NCBI GenBank assembly: GCA_019057385.1 | Contig: JAHQJS010000003.1 | Location: 32,001-96,000 of the forward strand | Length of the DNA stretch: 64,000 bases | Reading direction: 5' to 3' | Source of the DNA: Candidatus Borrarchaeum weybense | GTDB taxonomy: Archaea > Asgardarchaeota > Sifarchaeia > Borrarchaeales > Borrarchaeaceae | Part shown: in pieces, positions 7,996 to 64,000 of the stretch | Layout of the letters: every line of letters starts with the position of its first letter | Numbering within the stretch: the stretch's first letter is position 1 | Notes under the pieces: generated by a model | The model's database searches: none | What the model was told of the DNA's origin: nothing | Seen by the model: only the letters and a program-made list of their open reading frames with translations | Made by a program: the position numbers and the translations under genes

Positions 7996-8569
7996 CTACA
8001 TATATTTCAGAACTTCTTTTTCTCGAAGCATCAGGCTTGCTTATCAAGACTTTCTCAAAGATTTTTTTCATTTTATCAATGAACTCTTTAAAAAACTCTC
8101 CTTGAAAAACCTTAACGATGAAGTTACCTCCCCTAATGAGAAAATGGTTACACAGCCCTAATGATATCTCAGCTAGATATATTTGGCGGGCATGATCGAT
8201 CTCCCAGTTTCCGCTTACATTAGGGCTACAATCAGAGGTTATTACATTAAAGCTAGTGTTATATTCTTTAATTTCAGTTATAGTATTTTCGTCCGTGATA
8301 TCACCTAAAATTAACTTCACCTGGGGAATCGGAGTTATAGGCTGTAAATCAACCCCTACAACTATTCCCTCACCCACAAGGTCTTTAATCGCTTTTAGCC
8401 AACCACCTGGAGCGGACCCTAAATCTAAAACACTGTCGCCTTGCTTTATTAACTGGAATTTGTTATTTAACTGAATGATTTTAAAAGCAGCTCTTGAGCG
8501 GAGATTCTCTTTTTTAGCTTTTTTGTAATAAAAATCCTTTTTTCTTTCGTTTAACCACCGTTTACCCAT
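7964..8569 (-). CDS. rlmE: 23S rRNA 2'-O-methyltransferase RlmE/FtsJ
   Basis: RSRAAFK, DLGSAPGGW, KVFQG, SRKRSSEIY. Confidence 0.93.
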   Translation of the reverse strand: MGKRWLNERKKDFYYKKAKKENLRSRAAFKIIQLNNKFQLIKQGDSVLDLGSAPGGWLKAIKDLVGEGIVVGVDLQPITPIPQVKLILGDITDENTITEIKEYNTSFNVITSDCSPNVSGNWEIDHARQIYLAEISLGLCNHFLIRGGNFIVKVFQGEFFKEFIDKMKKIFEKVLISKPDASRKRSSEIYVVGRYYDPKYS

Positions 8570-8647: not shown

Positions 8648-9055
8648 CTATGACGATGCATTATTCAAAGAAGTTTTCGCGAGTTTTAGAAGCCAGTGAT
8701 CCAAACGGACACAAAAAACGGGCGATATTGATTGTAGATCTCCACATCTCGCCAAATCACCGCAAGTGAAACAGGGACATCCCCCAAGAGTATTTTCAGA
8801 TCCAATTTTCGAGGTACTTGAGGTTTTTGCAATAAGTCTGAAGCTCCATCTTCCATCCACAAGTTCCTTTTTTCTGTTAATTAGGCCTTTTTTTTCTAAG
8901 CGTACAGCTAGTCTTGAACCTTCTCGGCTTGTAGTTTCCAGCTTTTTCCAAAGATCAGACTGCAAAATACCTTGCACTCCTGTATTAAGAATGATCTTCA
9001 TTGCATTATCTTCTAAAGTTGTCACTCTTGTCTTTCTCCTAAACTCCAGTATCAT
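8648..9055 (-). CDS. TFE-beta / Rpc34-like wHTH protein with Fe-S motif
   Basis: GILQSDLWKKL...RLEKKGLI plus CPCFTC-x5-C...SPVFC-x2-LDHW. Confidence 0.75.
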   Translation of the reverse strand: MILEFRRKTRVTTLEDNAMKIILNTGVQGILQSDLWKKLETTSREGSRLAVRLEKKGLINRKKELVDGRWSFRLIAKTSSTSKIGSENTLGGCPCFTCGDLARCGDLQSISPVFCVRLDHWLLKLAKTSLNNASS

Positions 9056-21581: not shown

Positions 21582-21815
21582 GTCAACTACCCCACCCTAA
21601 AGGGTAGAGGCTTGTGAAAATCAAGCCTCTTAGTTGATTAGAGGGCTTCCGTTTATTAGGGGAAGCAGCAGTTGTTTAGGTTATGACACCCTGGGGTGTT
21701 CCACTAGCCCCTTGCTCTGTCGTCCGCTGATTATAAGTCCTGAGGGGTAGGGACGGTGTCACGGGCATGAAAGCCTTTACAACAGCCTCGAAGTGGACCA
21801 ACCTACTTTAAAGCA
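21582..21815 (+). ncRNA. IscB omegaRNA (HEARO-like) scaffold; guide expected just upstream (~21560-21581)
   Basis: GC-rich structured leader starting GTCAACTACCCCACCCTAAAGGG directly upstream of iscB; TATA-like TTTATAAAA at 21530; 3' end approximate. Confidence 0.75.
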
Positions 21816-26887: not shown

Positions 26888-27544
26888 TTAGGAAATAAGT
26901 TGACCGATCACCATACAGTGATCTTTATCAAAAGGTTTCAGACTTTCAATGTTCTCTTCCACTACGAAACCACTTTTTTTAAGAATATCAATTTCCTCTG
27001 AGAATATCTTAGATATCTCTTTGGAGGAATCTATACTTCTTGCTTTAATAGCCAGCATCGCAAAACCTCTTTTTTTAAGAAAAAGTTTTGCATTATCAAC
27101 TAAAATGATCGCCTGAGCAGGCTGGGCAACATCTTGATAAATCACATCTACAGGTCCAATAAACATCCTGTAAGTTTCTGGAAACCTCGCATCCGCTAAT
27201 ATTGGAATCATATTGGATCTGTTTTCACATACTCGTAACAAATCTCTCGTCGCACGAGGGGAAAATTCTACACAGTACACTATACCCTCTTGTCCTAAAA
27301 TATCTGAAACATGACTAGCTGTTGTGCCTGATGCAGCTCCCAAGTAAAGTACATGCATTTTTGGTTGGATAGGGATTTGTTTTAACCCTTTTCGAATAGC
27401 TGCAGCAAATTTACTACGATACGGATCCCATTCGCGAAATTCTTCCCCTTCGAATTGAAGTAAACGCTCCCCGTAGACGGTTTTCCCCGGAGCTAGATTC
27501 TTTGTTGCGATCCTTTTTTCTATAAAATGAATATTTTCGTTCAT
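26888..27544 (-). CDS. flpA: Fibrillarin
   Basis: VYGE, WDPYRSK, VLYLGAASGTTASHVSD, DVAQP. Confidence 0.95.
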   Translation of the reverse strand: MNENIHFIEKRIATKNLAPGKTVYGERLLQFEGEEFREWDPYRSKFAAAIRKGLKQIPIQPKMHVLYLGAASGTTASHVSDILGQEGIVYCVEFSPRATRDLLRVCENRSNMIPILADARFPETYRMFIGPVDVIYQDVAQPAQAIILVDNAKLFLKKRGFAMLAIKARSIDSSKEISKIFSEEIDILKKSGFVVEENIESLKPFDKDHCMVIGQLIS

Positions 27545-27546
27545 AT

Positions 27547-28800
27547 TTACCCCTCAGGCGGTTTTTTCTTCTCGTGCATTCTCTTTCCCTTGCCTTTCTT
27601 TTTCTTCTTCTTTTTCTTTTTCTTTTTTGCTTTTACTTCTTTTCTTACAGGTGGAGAGGGATATTTTTTCTCAATCTCTTCAATACGCTTCATAATTTCG
27701 ATAACTAATTCGTCTCCAATAAACTCGCCTGCGTAAGCATCTACTCTTGCTGCTATCGTTAGCTTTCCAGCTATCGCTCTTGCTATTTTACCTCGCAACC
27801 ACCACTTAGCATTGTGAATCTCAGGTTTCTGAAATAATACACCATGTTTCGGAGGTTTACTCCCAGTTTTAATGGCTCTAAATAGTGCTTTCTCCGCACC
27901 TAGGACTTGAACTGTGCTAGCGGGAAGACGTGCTAGTTCAAGAAGACCTCCTGCAATGCTAATAATTCGAGCCCCTAGTAGTGCGCCGACTATTGCAGTC
28001 ACATTTGGCGCAACTTCACGCATTGTAGTTTCAATATAGTGCTCACTTTCTTTCCTGACTTTGTATAAGTCATCTGTAATTCGTGCAAACTTAACAAGCG
28101 ATTCTAGATCTGCTTCATCCATTTCTGCTCCAATTGAGTTTTTAACATAACCCTCTATCTCTTTTGCCTTGTCTAAAGGTACGCCTGTTATTCTTTGAAT
28201 TTCCGAAACTAAAAAGCGATCGCGTGGACCCAATGCTCCTACTAATCCAACATATATTTCGTGATTTTCGACTTTATCCAATTCTGGAAAATGAAGACCA
28301 TACCATTCTCGGATTCGAGTTGAGAATAAATTTAACGTTTGATCGATATCATCTATAGCTTTAATCGCTTGTGCAACCATTTTATCTCTTCGTTCAGAGG
28401 CACGCTTTATCTTCTTTTGTGATTGCAGCAAACCTACTGATTGTAATATAAACTGGAAGTTATTGATCCCTTCTTCTTTTGCTATACTGAAGGACTGTTC
28501 ACGAAAATTTTTGAATATTGAATTTCCTTTTTCAGTTAACGTTTGAATATCAAATTGCTCCTGAATATTCCTTGCTAGTTTTTCGTCTTCAAGGACGATT
28601 TCTTGAACCTCTTTTTGCTTTAGTACACCTAGAACATCTTTTAATTCGTCAATAAGTTGTCCTGATTGAAGAAGTTCAATTTTTTCTACAATTTTCTCTG
28701 GCGTACTTGGAAAAAGCGCACGATAAATAATTTCGCTATTCTCATCGACCCCATAGATTCCTGCAACATTCTCCACAATATATGCACGTATTGATGTCAT
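27547..28800 (-). CDS. nop5: Nop5/Nop56 box C/D RNP protein
   Basis: EWYGLHFPEL, STVQVLGAEKALF, PKHG, GKIAR, Lys-rich tail. Confidence 0.95.
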   Translation of the reverse strand: MTSIRAYIVENVAGIYGVDENSEIIYRALFPSTPEKIVEKIELLQSGQLIDELKDVLGVLKQKEVQEIVLEDEKLARNIQEQFDIQTLTEKGNSIFKNFREQSFSIAKEEGINNFQFILQSVGLLQSQKKIKRASERRDKMVAQAIKAIDDIDQTLNLFSTRIREWYGLHFPELDKVENHEIYVGLVGALGPRDRFLVSEIQRITGVPLDKAKEIEGYVKNSIGAEMDEADLESLVKFARITDDLYKVRKESEHYIETTMREVAPNVTAIVGALLGARIISIAGGLLELARLPASTVQVLGAEKALFRAIKTGSKPPKHGVLFQKPEIHNAKWWLRGKIARAIAGKLTIAARVDAYAGEFIGDELVIEIMKRIEEIEKKYPSPPVRKEVKAKKKKKKKKKKKGKGKRMHEKKKPPEG

Positions 28801-29089
28801 TCAGATCCCATCTTCTATTATTAAGTTTTTAAGAACTTAATAGAATATCACGTATCTTTTGTATCTACTGGATTTTATTTCTCACGAGAAAATAAGGGTT
28901 TTTTCACCATTTTAATGTTTTTCCAAAAACTTATTTATCCTTTTAGAAAGCAATACTTGTTTATAATTCGAGAGAATAAATTATCTTATTCTAAATTATA
29001 TTTCACAATAGTGGGAGCGTAAAATATTTCTAGAAATTTGATTTCAAGAAATGTGTAGATACTCAAATGCGTTAAGAAGGAACTAATAA

Positions 29090-30445
29090 ATGATAGTCAC
29101 AGATTTGGTAAATTTAGCAAAAAAATCGGTCAAAATATTTAACGAACATGTTATTAAGGAAAACCTAGAACCACCAATGAGAGCCTATATTAGAGAATTT
29201 CCTACTAAATTTGAATTAACCGAATCAGGACACAGTTGTGGATTTTCAGGAGAAATAGTTCATAAACCGGACTGGTCTATGATAATATTTAATTTCATAG
29301 ACAAAATCAAAAAAAAGCCAGCCTTCGCACAACTTGCTCAATCAATTGCAGCAAGATATAAAAAGAACATCCAAGATCTGGCCGAAGGGTGCAATGAGTT
29401 AGCACAAGTCACTTTTTGGTTGGAGCGATTTATTCAGAAGATAATTTATAATAATTTAGATAAAGAACTTTCAGAAAATCAAATTATAGAATATGCTGTA
29501 TTGTTTAATTCTGATCTTGAATTAAATCCTTCAGAATATAATTACACTTTCTATTTAAACGGTATTTTCTTAGAATGTGAATCGGTAAAGATTAATGATA
29601 ACGTAATCATTAGAAAACCGCAAAAAGAGGATTTTGAATATACTAGAGATATTTTCTTCGATATTCCAAGACATCATCATATTAGAATTCCTTCATCAAT
29701 ACTGGAAATGAATATGATCGCTAAAGATAACAAAGAATGTAGAGCCTACGCCAATAGAATACTTAACGCATTAAGGCTATATAAACTGGGTTCAATTTAC
29801 CCTATTAATCAGATTGAAACTAGAAAGTCTATCATTTGGGGAGGTTCTCAAATAAGTTGGAATGGAAATTATACTTCCATCAAAAATTATACTGTAAATG
29901 AAACTGAACTTAAAGATTTTATTGATATTGTTATTGAAATTGAACAGAAATTGAATTTTAACAAAAAAGAAAAGAAAAATTGGGGGCTCCTTATTTCTCT
30001 TGAAAGATACAACTCTGCTCTTCTAGAATCTTTAGATATTGATCGAAAAGTAATGACTACAATTATGGGATTAGAATCTTTATTTTCTCTTGAAAAGGAT
30101 AGGGGCGAAAATGCGTATAAATTGGGCGTTAGAGTTGCGAAGTTACTCGGATTTATGAGACCGGATATTGAAGAAGTAAGAACATTGATAGAAAGTGGGT
30201 ATAAATTCAGAAATGATGTTGTTCACGGTATGTATATTAAACAAAACCAAAGAGAGAAAATGGAAAAAAACCTCCTGAAACTTCTCGACTATCTAAGAAT
30301 GTCTTTAATATTTTTTCTGATAAATCAACAACAAGGAAAAAATAAGTTAGTTGACATAATCGATAAATCACTAATAAGCGACAATTATGGCGAACAACTG
30401 AAAAGATTATTTCAAAACGGTATTATTATCTGTCCAAACATGTAG
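29090..30445 (+). CDS. ApeA/HEPN-like protein (putative RNase, defence cargo)
   Basis: C-terminal GLESLF...YKFRNDVVHG (RxxxxH); AT-rich island. Confidence 0.65.
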   Translation: MIVTDLVNLAKKSVKIFNEHVIKENLEPPMRAYIREFPTKFELTESGHSCGFSGEIVHKPDWSMIIFNFIDKIKKKPAFAQLAQSIAARYKKNIQDLAEGCNELAQVTFWLERFIQKIIYNNLDKELSENQIIEYAVLFNSDLELNPSEYNYTFYLNGIFLECESVKINDNVIIRKPQKEDFEYTRDIFFDIPRHHHIRIPSSILEMNMIAKDNKECRAYANRILNALRLYKLGSIYPINQIETRKSIIWGGSQISWNGNYTSIKNYTVNETELKDFIDIVIEIEQKLNFNKKEKKNWGLLISLERYNSALLESLDIDRKVMTTIMGLESLFSLEKDRGENAYKLGVRVAKLLGFMRPDIEEVRTLIESGYKFRNDVVHGMYIKQNQREKMEKNLLKLLDYLRMSLIFFLINQQQGKNKLVDIIDKSLISDNYGEQLKRLFQNGIIICPNM

Positions 30446-30550
30446 AAATCTCTAATAGATGAGTTTGAGTTATCTTAAATTTCAAACGACTCAGTTGAGC
30501 AAAAATAGATAATAATTAGTATAGATGTTTAAAATAAGTTAGTGGTATGA

Positions 30551-31612
30551 ATGGTATCTAAGATTAATCACTTTACCGATGCAGGAGAACTGTTTAGAAG
30601 ATTGGATACAATAGAAAGATTCCCAAATGTGCCTATTAAAACGGTATTGTTCATCTATGATTTCAGGTACAAATTATTAGACATCTTAGATAGAATAACA
30701 CCCCAGGAATATCAAAAATCGTCTTATAAAATTAAATTTGAAAACGATGATGTTGTCTTGTTAGATGTGAAGATCGTAAAAGATTTAGATATAATTTCAA
30801 GTGATAGGAGAAAAGTATTTCTTATAATAGATAAGAATAAGCCATTTTGTATTTTGATTACAAATTCTGAGGGAAATTATTTCAAAAAAGTATTATCATT
30901 TTTCAATAAACATTATCCGCTATTATCAAGAATTTTTTTACGCTCAAATGAAATAAAAGACTTATTAAACTATCTAGAGGAAAAAGAAGAAGCGAAGTTG
31001 ACCGTTTTAAGTTATGTTGTTAAAAGATACTATGTAAGGCCAGAGACAAGAATTGCCTATGAGAAAATCAGTTTTAGAGAAGTCTTTGATAAGGCATCAG
31101 ATGATTTTCTTTGGGTAGATAGTATTTATTTAGCAATTGAAAAAAGATCCAAGAGTAAAATTAGGATAAATAGACGAGGAGTCATATCATATTATAGGAA
31201 TTTAGATTATTCAAATATTCATTTGATTCTTATCTCTCAAATTCTTATTAAATACTCAAAAATATATACAAGTATCCTAATGGAAAGATCGAGAAGTCTT
31301 GAAAATTTAGAACCCCGACCAGTAAGGTTTTTTATAAACGAAGACGTCTTCAATTCATCAGAAGATATCGATAGGTTCTTAGAAGCTTTGCATAAATATT
31401 TGCTTAATTGGGGATATTCAACATTATTTAAAGAAAGAAACTACCTTTATCTCATACTTCACGATTATCAAACAGGTTCAAGTTACGATATTTTGATCAG
31501 TTCTCCTTATGAAATATTTGTTACTCCACAAACTCAAGTTACGAGCATTTCTTTTGGCGCTCTAGTCAACTTTCTTGTTGATAATTATGATGGAGTTGTT
31601 GAAAATGTCTAA
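30551..31612 (+). CDS. Hypothetical protein, coupled to the next gene
   Basis: 353-aa ORF in island. Confidence 0.7.
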   Translation: MVSKINHFTDAGELFRRLDTIERFPNVPIKTVLFIYDFRYKLLDILDRITPQEYQKSSYKIKFENDDVVLLDVKIVKDLDIISSDRRKVFLIIDKNKPFCILITNSEGNYFKKVLSFFNKHYPLLSRIFLRSNEIKDLLNYLEEKEEAKLTVLSYVVKRYYVRPETRIAYEKISFREVFDKASDDFLWVDSIYLAIEKRSKSKIRINRRGVISYYRNLDYSNIHLILISQILIKYSKIYTSILMERSRSLENLEPRPVRFFINEDVFNSSEDIDRFLEALHKYLLNWGYSTLFKERNYLYLILHDYQTGSSYDILISSPYEIFVTPQTQVTSISFGALVNFLVDNYDGVVENV

Positions 31613-32705
31613 AGATAATAATGAAGAATTAATGAGATTTAGAAAAATAGATATCAGCAACTATATCAAAGCGCTAAAATCTCTGATATGTTTAAGGAAA
31701 ATGATTATAAACGAGTTATCAGGTGAATTCTATTTTGGTAGTAAGTTAAATTACAAAAATAAACAAGGAGATCCTCAAACACCTGACTTTATTACAAAAC
31801 TAAGCAATACTGCATGGATAGGAGAGCTTAAAAGATCGCTTCCTGAACCTAAAAATTTTACTTCTGAAGAAGAATATGTCGAGAAAATTGTAGAAAAACT
31901 TATCGAACAGTTGCAAAAATATGATGAATCTTTTAAGGAATTAGATTCTTATCAGCATGATATTATACTAATGACTCCATCATTAGCAACAGATGCAATA
32001 GGCGTTTTGAAGTTTAAGTATCTAGAAAAAGAGAATGTCAATAATCTGTTTAAACACAATTTTGCACTTCTTCTTTATACACTTGAATCAGGAGCAAATA
32101 ATACCGAGTTCATATACATTAAATTGGATTATGGAACTATTACTGATAAGAAGGCTACAGATATTTTAAAAGTTGGTTACAAAAAGGTTTTAGGAGAATT
32201 AAAAGAAGATTTAGCGAAATTTAAAATATATGAAGAAAGTAAACAAACACCTTTTGAATATGTAATGGTTCTGCTTTGGACACAGATATTCCCTGAGATA
32301 ATCAAAAAAAGTCGTGTAGAGAAGATAATCGAATGGAAAGACAGGAAGGAACACATATTCGAAGTAAAATTAGATGAGTTAATTGAATATCTACATAAAA
32401 TGTATACATTGCCATCTTTGAGTGCAACTGACAAAAAGCAATTTACAACCAAGATAATACAGAAAGCCATGACTATGTTTTCAAAGGTTAAAATTAAAAG
32501 TGAAAGAACTAGAAAACTCGAACCTTTGGTTACGTATGGTGAAAAAGACGGTTCTATGGTATTTAGAGTGGTTTATAAAAAACTTCGGGAGAAGAAAGAA
32601 TTGGACTTCATTCTTAAGTCGATTTATTTGGAACAAGGTGAAATTGAAGACAAGGAAACTCAAAGAGAATTAATTAATTATCCACGATTAGATACATGGT
32701 TTTAA
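31605..32705 (+). CDS. Putative PD-(D/E)xK nuclease-domain protein
   Basis: TPDF...WIGELKRS...QLQKYD; start taken at ATG 31605. Confidence 0.55.
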   Translation: MSKDNNEELMRFRKIDISNYIKALKSLICLRKMIINELSGEFYFGSKLNYKNKQGDPQTPDFITKLSNTAWIGELKRSLPEPKNFTSEEEYVEKIVEKLIEQLQKYDESFKELDSYQHDIILMTPSLATDAIGVLKFKYLEKENVNNLFKHNFALLLYTLESGANNTEFIYIKLDYGTITDKKATDILKVGYKKVLGELKEDLAKFKIYEESKQTPFEYVMVLLWTQIFPEIIKKSRVEKIIEWKDRKEHIFEVKLDELIEYLHKMYTLPSLSATDKKQFTTKIIQKAMTMFSKVKIKSERTRKLEPLVTYGEKDGSMVFRVVYKKLREKKELDFILKSIYLEQGEIEDKETQRELINYPRLDTWF

Positions 32706-32936
32706 AATTTTAAATAAAAAGTAGTTATAAATTGATTCGCTGTTCTGTTAGTTATAGCGAGAGAGTTCTTTTTCCATAATTTTCTATACTAAAAACCGCT
32801 TAGAACAATTTTTTCAAAGAAAGGAAGTCAACTATACACCCATTTTATTAGAGGAGATGGGAAAACCTAATTTTTTTGATGGGTTTATAAATCTAGTTAT
32901 AGAATGTATAAATGAGATTATATCGAGGTTGGAAAT

Positions 32937-33758
32937 ATGAGAAAAACAAAAAAACTGATGATGATTCATGCCTATACTCCCATTGCAAAACCGATCAACA
33001 CCTCTGTTCAAAAAAATTCAACCATGCTGTTGTTAGGTCAAATTCCCTACGAAAACGGGTCAAAAATATTCACTACTAAGCTTTATTATATCAAAGGATT
33101 ACGTGGAATGCTAAGACATGCCTGTATGAGCCTTGCTCAGGATTGTAGTATCGAGGTGTGTCATACCAGCGAAAAAACTGAACTCAAAGACGGTACAAAG
33201 GTGACTCCCTCAGGGTTTCATCCACTGGGTGAATGTGAACCTCCATGCATCCTCAAAAGAATTTTTGGTACATTTCGCGAGGAGTCCTCAATATCTGTCT
33301 TGTCAGATCCTATAGCTTCTATTAAGCACAAAGAATTTACCACTGAAGTTCCTGTGCAAAAGGTACATATCGCTAGCGAATATAGAATAGCGAAATCGTT
33401 CACGGGTATACCTATTCAGGACTTCAAGGAATCGTATTTCTCAGGGTATTTTAGTTTCTGTATTGATGTAACTGAATTAACTGACTATGAAATCAAGTTT
33501 CTCATGGAATCTCTACTCTACATTGAAACACTTGGTGCTGGTAAGCGTTCGGGTTATGGACGTATCAAAATTATTAGTTTCGAGTTTCAGAAGGTTGAAA
33601 TTACCAGAAAGATCGACCGCGAAAATGGAAGTTATAAAGTTGTTGAGAATGAGTCGATAACGCCCTTAGAACTCGATGATATCGAGAGTTGGAGGGATTC
33701 AATACCTTCATGGACACAAGGCACGCAAGATGGTATGCTACCTGTTCTTAACGAGTAG
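32937..33758 (+). CDS. cas7: Divergent Cas7-like RAMP (locus A)
   Basis: IKGLRGMLRH, Cys cluster CH...CEPPC, IFG, G-rich loop LGAGKRSGYGRI; close paralog of 61174..61983. Confidence 0.8.
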   Translation: MRKTKKLMMIHAYTPIAKPINTSVQKNSTMLLLGQIPYENGSKIFTTKLYYIKGLRGMLRHACMSLAQDCSIEVCHTSEKTELKDGTKVTPSGFHPLGECEPPCILKRIFGTFREESSISVLSDPIASIKHKEFTTEVPVQKVHIASEYRIAKSFTGIPIQDFKESYFSGYFSFCIDVTELTDYEIKFLMESLLYIETLGAGKRSGYGRIKIISFEFQKVEITRKIDRENGSYKVVENESITPLELDDIESWRDSIPSWTQGTQDGMLPVLNE

Positions 33759-33932
33759 CACGTTCTTGTGCATGAGACTGCTCATCTATAAAGGTCTGAC
33801 GCCTTTGATGAGGAGGGATGACTCGCAGGGGACGATAAATGTCGTAAACATGTTTATGAGTTTACTAAGTCTATCGACTAACCTTGCAAAGCCTCTCTTA
33901 AGCGATGGCAAGTTAAACGCTTGTCATCGCTT
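33731..33932 (+). ncRNA. Putative guide RNA 1: scaffold 33731-33843, guide ~33844-33889, hairpin 33900-33932
   Basis: Scaffold shared with 59913-60028 and 61025-61139; 33865-33889 matches pyrD 34041-34065 (24/25). Confidence 0.7.
33900..33932 (+). terminator. Hairpin after guide 1
   Basis: AAGCGATGGCAAG/CTTGTCATCGCTT stem (one G-U), followed by T-rich tract. Confidence 0.55.
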
Positions 33933-34037
33933 CCATTTTATCCTATTGTTTCTTCTATACTTCTTCAGAAAAAGTTAAGAAGTCTAATATAAAAGTAAGA
34001 GTTAAGATAAACGAATGAAAGTGAAGTTTAGATTTTT

Positions 34038-34982
34038 ATGCTAACTCTATCGACTAACCTTGCAACATTACAACTTAAGAATCCTGTTATGTTAGCTGCT
34101 GGAGTTCTCGGTATTTCGGGACCAGTACTTAAACGGGTAGCGAATGCCGGTGCGGGTGCGGTTGTCACAAAATCTATCGGTCCTGAGCCCAGAGAAGGTT
34201 ACAATAATCCAACAGTCGTTCCTTTAAATGAATTTAGTTGTTTGAATGCTGTTGGGCTTTCAAACCCTGGGTATTTAGAGTTTTCCAAAGAAATAATTTT
34301 GGCAAAACAAGAAAACGTTCCAATAATTGTTAGTATATTTGGCGCAGATATTGATGAATTTTGTACAATTGCGAAGAAAATGGAAAAGAGTGGTGCTGAT
34401 GCACTTGAACTTAACCTTTCATGTCCTCATGGAGGAAAATATGGTGCATCTATCGGACAGGATCCACAATTATCAGGTGAAATTGTATACGCCGTAAAAA
34501 ATACCGTGCAGATCCCTGTTTTTATTAAACTCACACCAAACGTGACTGATCTGATTCCTATTGCAAAAAGTGCTGAAAATAATGGTGCCGATGCTATTAC
34601 TGCAATCAACACAGTACGCGCTATGTGCATAGACATTGAAACTGGGCAGCCCTTATTATCAAACGCGTTTGGAGGGCTTTCTGGGCCTGCAATAAAACCA
34701 ATCGCAATCAAACATATTTATGATCTCTATAAAGAAGTAGGGATCCCTCTTATCGGTGTGGGTGGTATTGTTTCTTGGGAAGATGCAATAGAATTCTTTC
34801 TTGCTGGAGCTACTGCAATTCAAGTAGGGACTGGGCTTCTGCGGACATCATTCCTAGACATGTTTAATGAATTAACCGAAGGAATTCTAAGTTATCTCAG
34901 AAGAAAAGGCTATACTCGTTTAGAAGAAATCATTGGACTTACTCATAGACTTAAATCTTATAGGGGATCTTTACACGAGTAA
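34038..34982 (+). CDS. pyrD: Dihydroorotate dehydrogenase B catalytic subunit
   Basis: KNPVMLAAG, LNAVGLSNPG, ELNLSCPH, KLTPN, GGLSGPAIKP. Confidence 0.95.
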   Translation: MLTLSTNLATLQLKNPVMLAAGVLGISGPVLKRVANAGAGAVVTKSIGPEPREGYNNPTVVPLNEFSCLNAVGLSNPGYLEFSKEIILAKQENVPIIVSIFGADIDEFCTIAKKMEKSGADALELNLSCPHGGKYGASIGQDPQLSGEIVYAVKNTVQIPVFIKLTPNVTDLIPIAKSAENNGADAITAINTVRAMCIDIETGQPLLSNAFGGLSGPAIKPIAIKHIYDLYKEVGIPLIGVGGIVSWEDAIEFFLAGATAIQVGTGLLRTSFLDMFNELTEGILSYLRRKGYTRLEEIIGLTHRLKSYRGSLHE

Positions 34983-58872: not shown

Positions 58873-58995
58873 TATGAATTAAATCTTATCGTTAGTTCTT
58901 TCATCAATATAAGATAACTTAGTTTGATTCTTACCGTTCCTTTCATAATAGACATCTATTACAGCGAATAGTGTCTATCCACCCACGATAAGAAC

Positions 58996-59266
58996 ATGAG
59001 TGGAGGGCCCGCTAGGACGGTTAAGCGGGATACCTACCGCCATATAGGGTGCAGGCCTTGCGTGAACGAAACGATGATTTATTATCAGCGTTCCCGCAGA
59101 ATCGACGGCGTACGGGAGTGCTGGGCTGAAGTCCGTGAAGTGGTCCCGGGGCGAATGCTTAAACCTCCGGGTGCCTCATCTTACCATCAATTCTCACTTA
59201 TATACTGGAGGACCTGCTTTATAAACACCACGCCTCACGCGTTCACTGTGGAACCCCTTGCCCGCG
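58996..59266. ncRNA. Unidentified GC-rich structured intergenic RNA candidate
   Basis: GC-rich stretch in AT-rich DNA with several hairpins. Confidence 0.35.
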
Positions 59267-59304
59267 AAAGAATCGTCTATATTTGTCTATAAAATAAATA
59301 ACTG

Positions 59305-59595
59305 TTAATCACCCTCTTGTAACTTTTGTTTGATCACAAAAACTCGTATTTTTTCCTCTGCAATTATAAGTGTATCATTGATGGATTTAATTACAGAATG
59401 AGGAATTAAAATTGTTCCTTTCTCATCGCGCGGAAATTTTTCAATATCTGGATGTTTAGTAGGCTTCACACACACCGCTAATAGGTGGCCATCTCGCGAA
59501 TTAATTATGAAATCAACTACCTTTCCCATAGCAGAACCTTTTTCATCAGTTACAGAAATACCAACTAAGTCCCGGATATCGATGATTTCCGACAT
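59305..59595 (-). CDS. PRC-barrel domain protein
   Basis: DLVGISVTDEKGSAMGKVVDF...ILIPHSVIKSINDTLII. Confidence 0.85.
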   Translation of the reverse strand: MSEIIDIRDLVGISVTDEKGSAMGKVVDFIINSRDGHLLAVCVKPTKHPDIEKFPRDEKGTILIPHSVIKSINDTLIIAEEKIRVFVIKQKLQEGD

Positions 59596-59846
59596 TTTTC
59601 ATCCCATCAGACCTTGCATGAGTCGGTCTATGTTAAATCAATATTTTTTGCTATTAATATCATCTGCTTCGAGTTATAAATTAGTCAAGTCATATTGACA
59701 GAACCTTTTCAAAAAGCAAAAATGAGAGTAGAATTGGAAAATTCAAAATTCGATTCAATAAATCTCGAATGAAAAGTGAAAACTAAAGAACGCTGTGCAA
59801 TTATCTTCGTTTAAATCATACAAAAGTCTATCATAATGCAGGAAAT

Positions 59847-60028
59847 AGGAGGGAATAATCCCTCCTTATCTAATATTTACAGGAATGCCGATTAAGTCGC
59901 GGATATTTTTTTGACATTTTTCGTCCCCTGCGAGTCATTCATTCCCAACAAGTGAGGCGTCGGACCTCTAATTTGGTTCAGTCTCATGCACAAGAACGTG
60001 TCCCCCGTGATATACGAAGAACATTCCG
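59847..60028 (-). ncRNA. Putative guide RNA 3: scaffold 60028-59913, guide ~59912-59875, hairpin 59866-59847
   Basis: Scaffold copy; 59906-59877 matches PRC-barrel gene 59579-59550 (25/30); perfect AGGAGGGA/TCCCTCCT stem. Confidence 0.7.
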
Positions 60029-60061: not shown

Positions 60062-60069
60062 TATATAAA
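60062..60069 (-). promoter_or_regulatory. TATA box for guide RNA 3
   Basis: TTTATATA ~34 nt upstream of the scaffold, just after the cas5-HD stop. Confidence 0.5.
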
Positions 60070-60944: not shown

Positions 60945-61139
60945 CTCCTCTTTGAACAAAAGAGAGGAGATATAAACCTTGCCAAAGTAAACACGTTTGC
61001 AACTGTTGTTTGTAAAGTGGGTATGACATTTTTCGTTCCTTGCGAGTCATCCGTCCCCAACAATTGAGGCGTCGGACCTCTAAGCTGGTTCAGTCTCATG
61101 CACAAGAACGTATCACTCACATCAGTAAGTGATAAACCG
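60945..61139 (-). ncRNA. Putative guide RNA 2: scaffold 61139-61025, guide ~61024-60970, hairpin 60969-60945
   Basis: Scaffold copy; 61021-60970 aligns to cas7 promoter 62071-62019 (7 mismatches, 1 gap). Confidence 0.72.
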
Positions 61140-61173
61140 TAATGAGATGAGAAAAAAAGTTGAAATAAATGTG

Positions 61174-61983
61174 TCACACAGCCACCTTCTCATCCTGTTT
61201 ACTCATAGTATTCAAAGAAGTTCTCCAATCCTCGATTTTACTTAGAGAAAGCGGAATTTCAGTGGTTTCTTCTATAATTTTATAGTTTCCTTCGCTATCC
61301 TCTTCGACTCTTCGAAAAGTCTCAACCTTCTGAAGAGCAATATTAAGGATTTTGACGCAACCATATCCACTTGACCGTCCTGCCCCAAGAATTTCTACGT
61401 AGAGCATTGCTTCTATAAGAAACTTGATTTCAACATCAGTTAGATTAGTGACATCAATTTGAAAGGAAAAAAATCCACTGAAATAACTCTCACGAAAGTC
61501 TTGGATGGGAGTACCATCATAGGCAAGCGCTATTCTGTTTTCACTAGAGATGTGGACATTTTGAACTGGCACTATTGTTATAAAATCTTTGTGTTTAATC
61601 GAGGCAATAGGGTCTGCTGCGACAACAATAGAGGACTTTTCACGGAAGGTGCCAAAGATTGTTCTGAGAATACAGGGAGGATCGCATGTACCAAGCGCAT
61701 GAAATCCTTGCGGAAGAACACTTTTACCATCTTTAAGTTCAGTTTTTTCAGAACTATGACATACTTCGATGTTGCAGTCTTGAGCAAGTTCCATACAGGC
61801 ATGTCTTAACATCCCTCGGATACCTTTAATGTAATAAAATTTAGTATTGAACGTTTTTTCTCCATTCACATAAGGAAATTTCCCTAACAAGAGCATGCTA
61901 GAATTTTTCTGAATCGAGGCATTGATAGGCTTTGCTATGGGTGTAAAGGCGTGAACAACTATCTGGTTTTTGATTTTTCTCAT
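61174..61983 (-). CDS. cas7: Divergent Cas7-like RAMP (locus B)
   Basis: IKGIRGMLRH, CH...CDPPC, IFG, LGAGRSSGYGCV. Confidence 0.8.
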   Translation of the reverse strand: MRKIKNQIVVHAFTPIAKPINASIQKNSSMLLLGKFPYVNGEKTFNTKFYYIKGIRGMLRHACMELAQDCNIEVCHSSEKTELKDGKSVLPQGFHALGTCDPPCILRTIFGTFREKSSIVVAADPIASIKHKDFITIVPVQNVHISSENRIALAYDGTPIQDFRESYFSGFFSFQIDVTNLTDVEIKFLIEAMLYVEILGAGRSSGYGCVKILNIALQKVETFRRVEEDSEGNYKIIEETTEIPLSLSKIEDWRTSLNTMSKQDEKVAV

Positions 61984-62326: not shown

Positions 62327-64000
62327 TTAGGGCAATAGATCTTTTACTGTAACTGGAGGACCCTTTTTCTGTGGTTTATAGATGCCTTCTAAATGTTGGA
62401 ATCTTTCAAACATTAAGTGGAGAGTTTCCTTATCTGGAGCGTAAATAAAGGGGATGAATCGCTTATTTTCTAGCAAAAAATCCTTGAGTTGTACTGCACA
62501 CTGCCTTAAAGCCTCCATTACTGTCATCTTCTGTTCAAGATAGTATATTTCTTGATTGAGTATATCATCAACTAGTCTCTCAACTTTGTAGTGTCCATTC
62601 CATGTTAGGTGATAGAATTGTTCGTGTTCAAGCGTTTTACGCTTCTTGAAATCAGCTTTTGTAAATTCACCATACAAACATGCTAAAATTAGGGTGAGCC
62701 TGAACAAGGGAATAAACATTTCTCGAAAATCAAAGATAGTGCCTAGAAAGGAGCGTTGGGTTTTTTTAAAGTGCAGTATCAGTTCATCCGGTACCCAAGA
62801 AAATCCTACTTCAGCGAGTGCTTTTCGACAGTAAAGGTTAAGATGACGATAAACAGCATTGAGTGCAGCACTAAAGGGTGTACGTGCTTTTACTTCTCCT
62901 AAAAGGACAACGGTGGAAATATAGCGTTCTAGGGTACGACTAATGATCTCAAAGTAGGTTCCTCTTAGCAAACGTTTAGGGATTTCCCAGGCAACTCCTT
63001 CAACTAAGCCTTCAAACCCACGGAGGTTGTCAATATTACCCCTCCAATAGAGAAAAGTATATGCTACTCGATCCAGCAATTTAGATAAGAGCTCTTGAGC
63101 ATTTTCAGCAGATAACAACCCCTCTTTTTCAACTTGGAGTACTGAATTGGCTAGACCTATATCTTTACTTATTGTCAGAAGCCATGCTAGCAATTTGCCT
63201 CGTTCTGTTCCTCTGATTCGCTGAGCGGCATATTTCAGTTCGTCGGCTACCTGTTGTTTCTTTGGAGTTAGTTTATTTTGTGCAAAGAAACTACCTTTTG
63301 GTGTATTTGCATCAATGAGTTTCTTGCTATATTTCTTACGAATGTATTGCGATATATCGCCACCTTCAATGATGATATTACGGATAGCACCGACTAAATA
63401 CCGTTTTGTTTCTCTTCCGTCTTTTAGTGTATGAACAAATCGTTTTTTTCTAATATCGAGCCTTTCATTACACTTGACACGGATATTTCGTTTTGGTCTT
63501 CTGATATAGACCTTTGTCTTTTTAACTCTCTGAACATAATTCCCGGGCTTACCTATAAGCAGTTCTAAATTTGTTTGCAATACATCACGATAACCCGGTT
63601 TTATTACAAGTTCACCATTAACGGTCAAATGATAACTGGAATTGCATTCAGGACAGACTGTATATTCCATATATGAGGACGGTAATTCCACAATGCCACG
63701 AGGTTTACAGTTTAAACATGTAATGCTGCCATTTGTTTCTTGCAATATTCTTATTTTACGTTTTTTTAACCTTTGAACATTTTCGTGATGTTCGCATGCA
63801 CTCTTCCTTGGTGTGGCGTAAGGATTTCTTGCTCGTTTTCCTACTTGTTTGTTTAATTTGCAGTTTAACACACAAACATGTGCATGTTTCGATCTTCGAC
63901 GGTCCTTTATAGGGTTTATCTGAATGAACTTACAAGATCCACAGGTGAGCCGAAGATGTTCAGGAATACTTGCGTTCACATCAGCTACATAGATTTTGGG
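62327..64000 (-). CDS. cas1: Large divergent Cas1 with N-terminal Zn-finger-like motifs (5' end outside window)
   Basis: LRGFEG, PFSAALNAVYRHL, ALAEVGF...ILH, IFDFREMF follow the Cas1 E/H/D-E catalytic motif order; several CxxC pairs; frame open to window edge. Confidence 0.75.
   Translation of the reverse strand, partial: PKIYVADVNASIPEHLRLTCGSCKFIQINPIKDRRRSKHAHVCVLNCKLNKQVGKRARNPYATPRKSACEHHENVQRLKKRKIRILQETNGSITCLNCKPRGIVELPSSYMEYTVCPECNSSYHLTVNGELVIKPGYRDVLQTNLELLIGKPGNYVQRVKKTKVYIRRPKRNIRVKCNERLDIRKKRFVHTLKDGRETKRYLVGAIRNIIIEGGDISQYIRKKYSKKLIDANTPKGSFFAQNKLTPKKQQVADELKYAAQRIRGTERGKLLAWLLTISKDIGLANSVLQVEKEGLLSAENAQELLSKLLDRVAYTFLYWRGNIDNLRGFEGLVEGVAWEIPKRLLRGTYFEIISRTLERYISTVVLLGEVKARTPFSAALNAVYRHLNLYCRKALAEVGFSWVPDELILHFKKTQRSFLGTIFDFREMFIPLFRLTLILACLYGEFTKADFKKRKTLEHEQFYHLTWNGHYKVERLVDDILNQEIYYLEQKMTVMEALRQCAVQLKDFLLENKRFIPFIYAPDKETLHLMFERFQHLEGIYKPQKKGPPVTVKDLLP

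Follow-up and report, generated by a model that had tools for sequence, protein, structure and literature searches.

ARAMP (Asgard RAMP) was described as a CRISPR-like module that derives from type III systems and lacks an array (Makarova et al. 2020, CRISPR J, reviewed in PMC8730458 and PMC12669027). Its reported components are a Cas7-like RAMP, a further small RAMP-like protein that has a nuclease domain, and a distinct form of Cas1, without a CRISPR array or cas2, and its mechanism is called enigmatic; neither account mentions an RNA partner, a target or mobility (PMC8730458, PMC12669027). In the window, by which we mean the whole 64,000-nt stretch of the Candidatus Borrarchaeum weybense genome analysed here, we found a gene set that fits ARAMP, with a Cas7-like RAMP, a candidate second RAMP-like subunit carrying HD-type motifs, a distinct Cas1, no array and no cas2. 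The locus differs from the described module in that a structured RNA follows each RAMP gene, in that the terminal RNA contains an insertion-site copy, and in that empty alleles, when compared with it, reveal the module as an insert. The gene module itself is already known. In the literature that we searched there is no account of an ARAMP RNA or of an insertion-site copy in that RNA, and none of ARAMP as a mobile insert recognised from empty alleles or of replaced gene ends; the empty-allele comparison and the three-copy layout described below are new in this analysis.

CASTs (types I-F3, I-B and V-K) use dedicated homing guides. The present locus resembles these elements, of which I-D and I-B examples are given in PMC9881144, in that a guide-like segment borne by the element matches a conserved host gene beside it in a fixed orientation, with mismatches tolerated at synonymous positions. 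Unlike CASTs, it has no Tn7-type genes, no array and no repeat-flanked spacer, its putative integrase is a helicase-Cas1 fusion, insertion lies at or inside the matching site rather than ~50–65 bp away, and the element also replaces a gene end. Elements of the TnpB/IscB kind (IS200/IS605, IS607) are similar in having a scaffold RNA at the element end after the effector gene, with the guide 3′ of it beside the host flank, and a homing role is plausible here as there. Their effector is a single RuvC protein, whereas here it would be a multi-subunit, RAMP-based one; the guide-like segment here is ~30–40 nt long and closed by a hairpin, and a separate, diverged target copy lies downstream. The genome also carries a classical OMEGA element, as indicated by a HEARO RNA (IscB-type omega RNA; RF02033, 116.8 bits) at a separate locus of the window, 21582-21802 (+).

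Casposons share with the locus a Cas1/casposase fold (best match 6opm) and insertion beside a tRNA gene and into gene ends. The differences are that PolB, terminal inverted repeats and a clear 14–15 bp duplication are missing here, that Cas1 is fused to a Hel308-like helicase, and that RAMP genes and RNAs are present. Elements that carry replacement gene ends are known from phage 21 and e14 in icd and from tRNA-targeting integrases. As with phage 21 and e14, the native gene end is orphaned and an element-borne, diverged copy completes the gene; those elements have tyrosine integrases and leave two copies of the site, whereas here a third, native-like copy is joined to a conserved RNA scaffold.

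The order of features on the minus strand is helicase-Cas1, Cas7-like RAMP, scaffold block, RAMP/HD protein, scaffold block, a 32-nt segment, a hairpin, ~250 nt and the PRC-barrel gene (Table 1). Helicase-Cas1, RAMP and RAMP/HD are the only ORFs of the insert at this locus: cas2, cas6, cas10 and PolB are absent among them, as are the Tn7-like genes TnsB, TnsC and TniQ among the three proteins, and a single RuvC-type effector is absent from the insert. CRISPR-like tandem or direct repeats, and with them a CRISPR array, were absent from the 64-kb window.

Table 1. Coordinates of features at the PRC-barrel locus and at locus A (positions in the window; L001, coordinates of the wider locus).
Feature	Position	Strand	Basis or remark
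Helicase-Cas1 fusion, C-terminal part	62327..64000	-	ORF (63979-62327) runs off the window; complete at L001:4327-8310
Cas7-like RAMP gene	61174..61983	-	PF03787 RAMP, E 2.9e-6, above curated cut-off
Scaffold RNA copy 2 (inner)	61022..61140	-	nhmmer and covariance model matches
Inner RNA tail	61021-60970	-	conserved between loci; resembles stretch upstream of cas7, 62071-62033
RAMP/HD protein (putatively Cas5-like/HD), 275 aa	60092..60919	-	HD-type motifs; N-terminus small and RAMP-like
TATA-like octamer upstream of RNA 3	60062..60069	-	read from the letters
Scaffold RNA copy 3 (terminal)	59913..60028	-	profile and covariance model matches, alignment
Variable tail, 'guide 3'	59875..59906	-	copy of native PRC-barrel nt 30-61
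8-bp hairpin closing the tail	59847..59866	-	read from the letters
Insert-borne filler, present PRC upstream region	59596..59846	-	no counterpart in empty alleles
Resident diverged target copy inside working PRC-barrel gene	59548..59579	-	26/32 to tail
PRC-barrel gene, replaced start	59305..59595	-	PF05239, E 2.2e-9; empty-allele comparison
Locus A insert, 5.25 kb, adjoining pyrD	28790..34040	+	G004 empty allele; three unknown ORFs besides the parts below
Locus A Cas7-like gene	32937-33758	+	
Locus A scaffold 1	33731-33846	+	
Locus A tail 1	33852-33889	+	
Locus A hairpin	33900-33932	+	

The complete helicase-Cas1 fusion is 1327 aa long. Its N-terminal half contains DEAD and Helicase_C domains and corresponds to a Hel308-like helicase. 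No match to its Cas1 part was obtained by sequence with Pfam, NCBIfam or phmmer against PDB, and it came to light by fold search only. An AF2 model of the last 370 aa (pLDDT 68.8) matched casposase 6opm (E 1.5e-8) and Cas1 4n06 (E 1e-7), and every one of its 46 PDB matches at E ≤ 1e-3 was Cas1, so that the model assigns the C-terminus to the Cas1/casposase fold. The Cas7-like protein (269 aa) also has weak type III RAMP matches in NCBIfam, and both copies of the window meet the PF03787 cut-off (E 2.9e-6 and 1.3e-6). The RAMP/HD protein has no Pfam match. In eight paralogues the HD, H, NHHNYD and D motifs are invariant and are accompanied by a G-rich loop; its model (pLDDT 57.8) gave a Foldseek list made up mostly of Cmr, Csm and Cas6 RAMPs, none of them a significant match (best E 0.066).

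The RNA that follows each RAMP gene of the module is a structured scaffold of ~115 nt. With a profile built from the three copies of the window, nhmmer recovered 26 copies in the genome, and an alignment of 23 of them displays a variable 5′ hairpin, preserved through compensatory changes, together with a long-range stem and an internal stem-loop. A covariance model detected the RNA in each of the other four genomes of the genus, in a single genome from another family, and in none of the 55 further genomes searched in the phylum. It is not an Rfam family: the only Rfam match in the window was HEARO, and L001 gave nothing at E ≤ 0.01. Two groups of RNAs can be told apart. Inner RNAs, located between RAMP genes, have conserved tails, and RNAs at module ends have variable ones. 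A terminal RNA consists of the conserved scaffold, a variable segment of ~32 nt and a hairpin. The tail copy begins 7 nt past the scaffold end at the PRC locus and 6–9 nt past it in every locus; tails are mostly 25–45 nt long, reaching ~75 nt in G004 C46b. Strong hairpins of unrelated sequence begin 45–61 nt past the scaffold end in 14 of the 26 genome copies. The solo scaffold of G004 C24 is preceded by a TATA-like box similar to that of RNA 3. As to the inner RNA, its tail (61020-60982, -) resembles the stretch upstream of cas7, including the scaffold-end-like GGAAGTCAT; the two lie ~1.1 kb apart, and the resemblance recurs in all seven loci of the genome. It could reflect autoregulation or duplication of a promoter-RAMP-scaffold unit.

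The point of departure was a claim, in an earlier note on this DNA, that the minus-strand segment 59906-59877 matches 59579-59550, at the 5′ end of the adjacent PRC-barrel gene, at 25 of 30 positions. This was borne out. The segment lies directly behind the third copy of the conserved scaffold, the identity is 25/30 and extends to 26/32 (59906-59875 vs 59579-59548), and the PRC site is the best non-self match of the RNA 3 tail in the window and genome-wide; the next best 30-mer to the guide-3 segment on either strand of the 64-kb window has 19/30. Using an ungapped local score (+1/-1.5), the 65-nt tail of RNA 3 scored 17.5 against the 2.5 kb downstream. In the shuffle test that the note had proposed (n = 500), the null had a mean of 9.36, an sd of 1.05 and a maximum of 14, and no shuffle reached the observed score. 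Among cross-locus tail pairs the 99th percentile was ~14, the few pairs above it being homologous conserved tails. With 0/500 shuffles at this level and the next best 30-mer at 19/30, a chance origin of the match was ruled out. The TATA-like octamer and the 8-bp hairpin that the note had ascribed to this RNA can likewise be read in the sequence.

What the matching segments represent became apparent from empty alleles. In the congeners G002, G004 and G001 and in three metagenome contigs, a tRNA-like gene is followed by ~400 nt and an intact PRC gene, and the site is empty. In B. weybense, sequence from the tRNA side runs into native PRC nt 1-29 and breaks off at L001:8504/8503, beyond which lies the helicase-Cas1 gene. 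An orphan native PRC 5′ fragment (L001:~8504-8535) is thus found at the far, tRNA-side end of the insert, and could be detected only by empty-allele comparison. The tail behind scaffold 3 resumes at native nt 30 and is contiguous with this fragment. Since nt 1-29 lie at one end and the tail starts from nt 30 at the other, the module is a ~6.9-kb insert inside the PRC-barrel 5′ end, and the ARAMP cluster is, as far as such alignments tell, an integrated mobile element. By the same comparison 'guide 3' is native sequence adjoining the insertion point: the tail is identical to G004 at 31/32 positions, to G002 at 30/32 and to the resident gene at 26/32. The note had taken the differences for orthologue divergence, which holds with respect to G004 and G002, and the tail for a diverged copy of the neighbouring gene, which does not. 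The tail reproduces almost exactly the native 5′ end as it was before the insertion, and it is the neighbour's 5′ end that is diverged and borne by the insert. Consistent with a replaced start, the upstream region of the resident PRC gene is unrelated to that of the empty alleles, ATG TCG GAA stands in place of the first eight native codons, and the 5′ ~115 nt are ~13% diverged from G004 vs 1–2% for the 3′ 170 nt.

We found no terminal inverted repeats joining the insert ends and no clear target-site duplication at the junctions, where an overlap of at most 8 nt may equally be due to homology of the replacement gene end. Simple attL/attR repeats bracketing the module were considered and rejected, there being no third copy of any variable tail within ±15 kb. 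Metagenome contigs yielded no other occupied PRC allele, a second scan returning intact native alleles only, and the matches listed for contigs of four DNA runs include no joint across the insert. In another sample of the same study, one 99%-identical contig follows L001:8504-8799 only up to the left junction and then departs, which is consistent with a strain without the insert. At the beginning of the PRC gene, 59605-59586 (-), which takes in the start codon, is identical at 17/20 positions to the scaffold 3′ end (direct repeat D11). The PRC ATG could come from an older scaffold copy or the remnant of an earlier insertion, and this scaffold-end-like 20-mer could be a flank by which the resident copy is recognised as self. 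The filler as a whole was tried as a decayed older scaffold; nhmmer gave a 17-nt match only (E 0.19) at PRC and nothing at five other loci.

We give roughly even weight to and against the proposal, drawn from sequence comparison, that the terminal tail is a crRNA-like homing guide of a Cas1-based integrative element. The tail would be transcribed, RAMP proteins would hold the scaffold in an RNA-protein complex, and the tail would direct this complex to DNA by pairing with the template strand of an unoccupied allele. Helicase-Cas1, with Cas1 as the presumed integrase, or cleavage and then recombination, would set the element at the 5′ edge of the site. The element would also supply a replacement gene end, in which a new upstream region and start codon precede a diverged target copy; in this way the host gene would stay functional, and the resident copy would be a poorer match for the guide and probably be protected by its mismatches. 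The general pattern, which recurs at ftsY, pyrD and a Cys-rich gene, comprises three copies: an orphaned native end, a native-like copy at the scaffold and a diverged copy in the working gene. An RNA-guide role is suggested by the third copy lying always directly behind the scaffold, short and ending in a hairpin whose distance from the scaffold is constrained. The strict co-orientation of the matches, and tails that fit empty alleles better than resident copies, also point to a homing guide, and further support comes from the recurrence of the three-copy layout at ftsY and its mirror image in G004 C24, and from an element that encodes a Cas1/casposase fold, a RAMP and an HD-motif protein and has no array. 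Counting against it are the missing terminal inverted repeats and the lack of a clear duplication.

To determine how general the match is, each tail was scanned against its own 2.5 kb downstream. Tails of five of the ~16 terminal RNAs in the genome were above the null, all of them co-oriented with their targets, and no inverted tail match occurs in this genome. Besides PRC (25/30), these are pyrD (24/25), ftsY (28/34, with mismatches mostly at third codon positions) and a Cys-rich gene (16/17); the fifth tail matches, at 27/31, the tail of the next RNA in its own locus. At L011 (C5 ~117950-119840, -), which has three scaffold copies, the first tail matches at 27/31 a segment 50 nt behind the third. 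In other genomes, for which the note had proposed such a test, the downstream scan gave further tail-target cases in congeners, and none among the ~30 copies of G005, a genome of another family. The remaining ~11 of 16 terminal tails have no detectable target nearby, genome-wide or in congeners; two of them lack a match at ≤3 mismatches in five genomes, and the rest gave nothing significant genome-wide. These unmatched tails and the ~30 G005 copies argue against a homing guide. So do scaffolds in G004 and G001 that abut an intact acyl-CoA dehydrogenase gene and have no separate tail or hairpin. Guide-target matches at L049 and L066 were discarded, since the scaffold there lies 9 nt upstream of the intact native acyl-CoA dehydrogenase gene and the match is a tandem paralogue.

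The earlier note had placed the target at the start of the next co-oriented gene. Co-orientation held throughout, and the gene start did not, as the ftsY tail corresponds to codons 39-50 and two G004 targets lie in the 3′ part of their genes. Tails were compared with the intact congener allele and with the resident copy at six loci, and in all six the tail was closer to the intact allele: PRC, 31/32 vs 26/32; pyrD, 36/38 vs 29/38; G004 C24, 27/29 vs 24/29; G004 C46, 66/76 vs 57/76; ftsY, 30/35 vs 28/35; and L004b, 25/32 vs 23/32. The margins at ftsY and L004b are small, and that these tails are barely closer to empty alleles weighs against the homing guide.

These comparisons also bear on a guide without any role in mobility, whose complex would bind the 5′ end of the neighbouring gene and tune its transcription. 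Guide-based tuning of transcription is known from TldR and from type IV-A interference, and it would account for the matches in PRC, pyrD, ftsY and L004b, which coincide with the beginning of the next co-oriented gene or lie close to it; the likeness of the inner tail to the region upstream of cas7 in 7/7 loci would allow autoregulation as well. We nevertheless regard regulation as improbable. Intact alleles from other genomes agree with the tail more closely than does the gene supposedly regulated, two G004 targets are in the 3′ part of the gene (that of C24 at the 3′ end), and the inner-tail likeness is explained equally well by duplication of the promoter-RAMP-scaffold unit. In addition, the tail is the sense strand and for this reason cannot pair with the mRNA.

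The geometry that the note had seen at locus A also proved real, with 33865-33889 identical to 34041-34065 at 24/25 positions. The G004 empty pyrD allele aligns to 27420-28789 and again from 34041 onward, and tail 1 matches the start of the intact G004 pyrD gene, including bases that are missing from the present pyrD start. Locus A has no Cas1 and no RAMP/HD gene, a further point against the homing guide. At the left junction (28789/28790) the first codons of the divergent upstream gene are replaced (MK... in G004, MTSI... here), and ~130 nt of ancestral intergenic DNA are missing.

At ftsY, the native promoter and codons 1-38 are found at the far end of a ~10-kb insert and are near-identical to the G004 and G002 empty alleles. 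The tail is followed by the hairpin and then by a new upstream region. The working gene begins with a copy of codons 1-38 that is 67% identical to the native fragment over 30 aligned residues, continues with a second copy of codons 39-50 and is native-like from there on. At the left end of this insert (C4 ~349293-349200, -), the 3′ end of a partial scaffold lies 40 nt inside the junction and is 85% like C3:20289-20365; such left-end scaffold pieces look as if they had been left behind by earlier insertions into this site.

Three copies of the site also have to be accommodated by the strongest competing explanation, in which a protein (Cas1 or an unrecognised recombinase) specifies integration into gene ends, the element brings a replacement gene end as phage 21 and e14 do, and the tail is a passive leftover of the split native gene or an attachment-site arm with no guide role. 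Several observations fit it. In the empty allele the tail directly follows the orphan fragment, just as a native right flank would; in G004 and G001 the scaffold adjoins an intact native gene; many tails are unmatched; and non-native replacement gene ends are classical for integrative elements in general. Classical integration, however, results in two site copies, and these loci have one more, right after the scaffold and with the hairpin at a constrained distance. A leftover would have to be cut to the same short length at six independent loci. Taken together, we judge a passive relic rather unlikely, while not negligible.

The mirror-image layout of G004 C24 is of particular relevance to this question. 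There a scaffold without cas genes is located near the 3′ end of a gene, and a diverged 3′ end that includes a stop codon of its own completes this gene. It is followed by ~170 nt in which a TATA-like box occurs, by the scaffold, by a 29-nt tail that is 27/29 identical to the intact allele of B. weybense, and by a hairpin; the orphaned native 3′ end lies ~150 nt past the hairpin. The left gene retains a complete, diverged copy of the site, which argues against the passive relic in that the tail is not the sole remnant of the split gene.

Alternatively, the element might end at the scaffold, as in TnpB/IscB-type systems, and the tail might be host flank into which transcription continues; a second event, such as repair after self-cleavage or co-conversion during homing, would then have brought the hairpin, the filler and the diverged gene end. 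This reading would suit the start of the tail 6–9 nt past the scaffold in every locus, its contiguity with the orphan fragment, the acyl-CoA dehydrogenase loci, which resemble a simple state, and the native/foreign junction in the working gene, which falls at or beyond the end of the duplicated segment. It is improbable nonetheless, as two coordinated insertions would be needed at six loci, the G004 C24 tail spans the start point of the orphan copy, and the hairpin lies at a constant distance, from which it can be argued that the tail is inside a designed RNA gene. Flank-derived and regulatory guides are both less likely than either the homing guide or the relic. Not all geometry is constant: the insertion point is at the edge of the matching segment at PRC and ftsY and 7–13 nt inside it at G004 C24 and pyrD, and the distance from tail to resident copy ranges from 67 to 600 nt. 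Variability in both respects speaks against the homing guide.

Extending the homing-guide reading to the whole module, we tentatively suggest that ARAMP may be a natural 'home-and-rescue' system, although on present evidence we would not call this probable. A type III-derived RAMP complex with a single scaffolded guide would target a conserved host gene at its native 5′ or 3′ end, helicase-Cas1 (or cleavage and recombination) would carry out insertion, and a diverged replacement gene end would maintain the function of the host gene and leave the occupied allele a poorer match for the guide. If this is true, it would be the first Cas1-based RNA-guided mobile element, and array-less ARAMP would obtain its missing RNA and target. 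If the tail is indeed a guide, RNA steering would extend to Cas1 integrases, alongside Tn7-like and IS200/IS605-type transposases, and the combination of this guide with a diverged replacement gene end would resemble, in nature, the engineered gene drives of the rescue type. Should it be a relic, the data still show ARAMP modules to be mobile inserts by which the ends of housekeeping genes such as ftsY and pyrD are rebuilt. In either case a module listed since 2020 as enigmatic gains experimental handles, namely a conserved RNA with one variable segment, the DNA sequence that this segment copies and exact insert boundaries.

Three further features flank the PRC locus. A GC-rich, apparently structured region downstream of the PRC gene (58990-59290, -) is without an Rfam match, and its last ~75 nt match many congener contigs. 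The tRNA-like gene on the other side (L001:~8853-9027, -), which was missed by ARAGORN, contains inserted segments and has acceptor-stem-like ends, GCGGGGG...CCCCCGC. Beside it, L001:9117-9436 (C3 99117-99436) has a contig depth ~40-fold higher than its surroundings and includes a 149-nt segment that is replaced by 36–38 nt in many contigs; this stretch looks like a multi-copy small element or RNA family.
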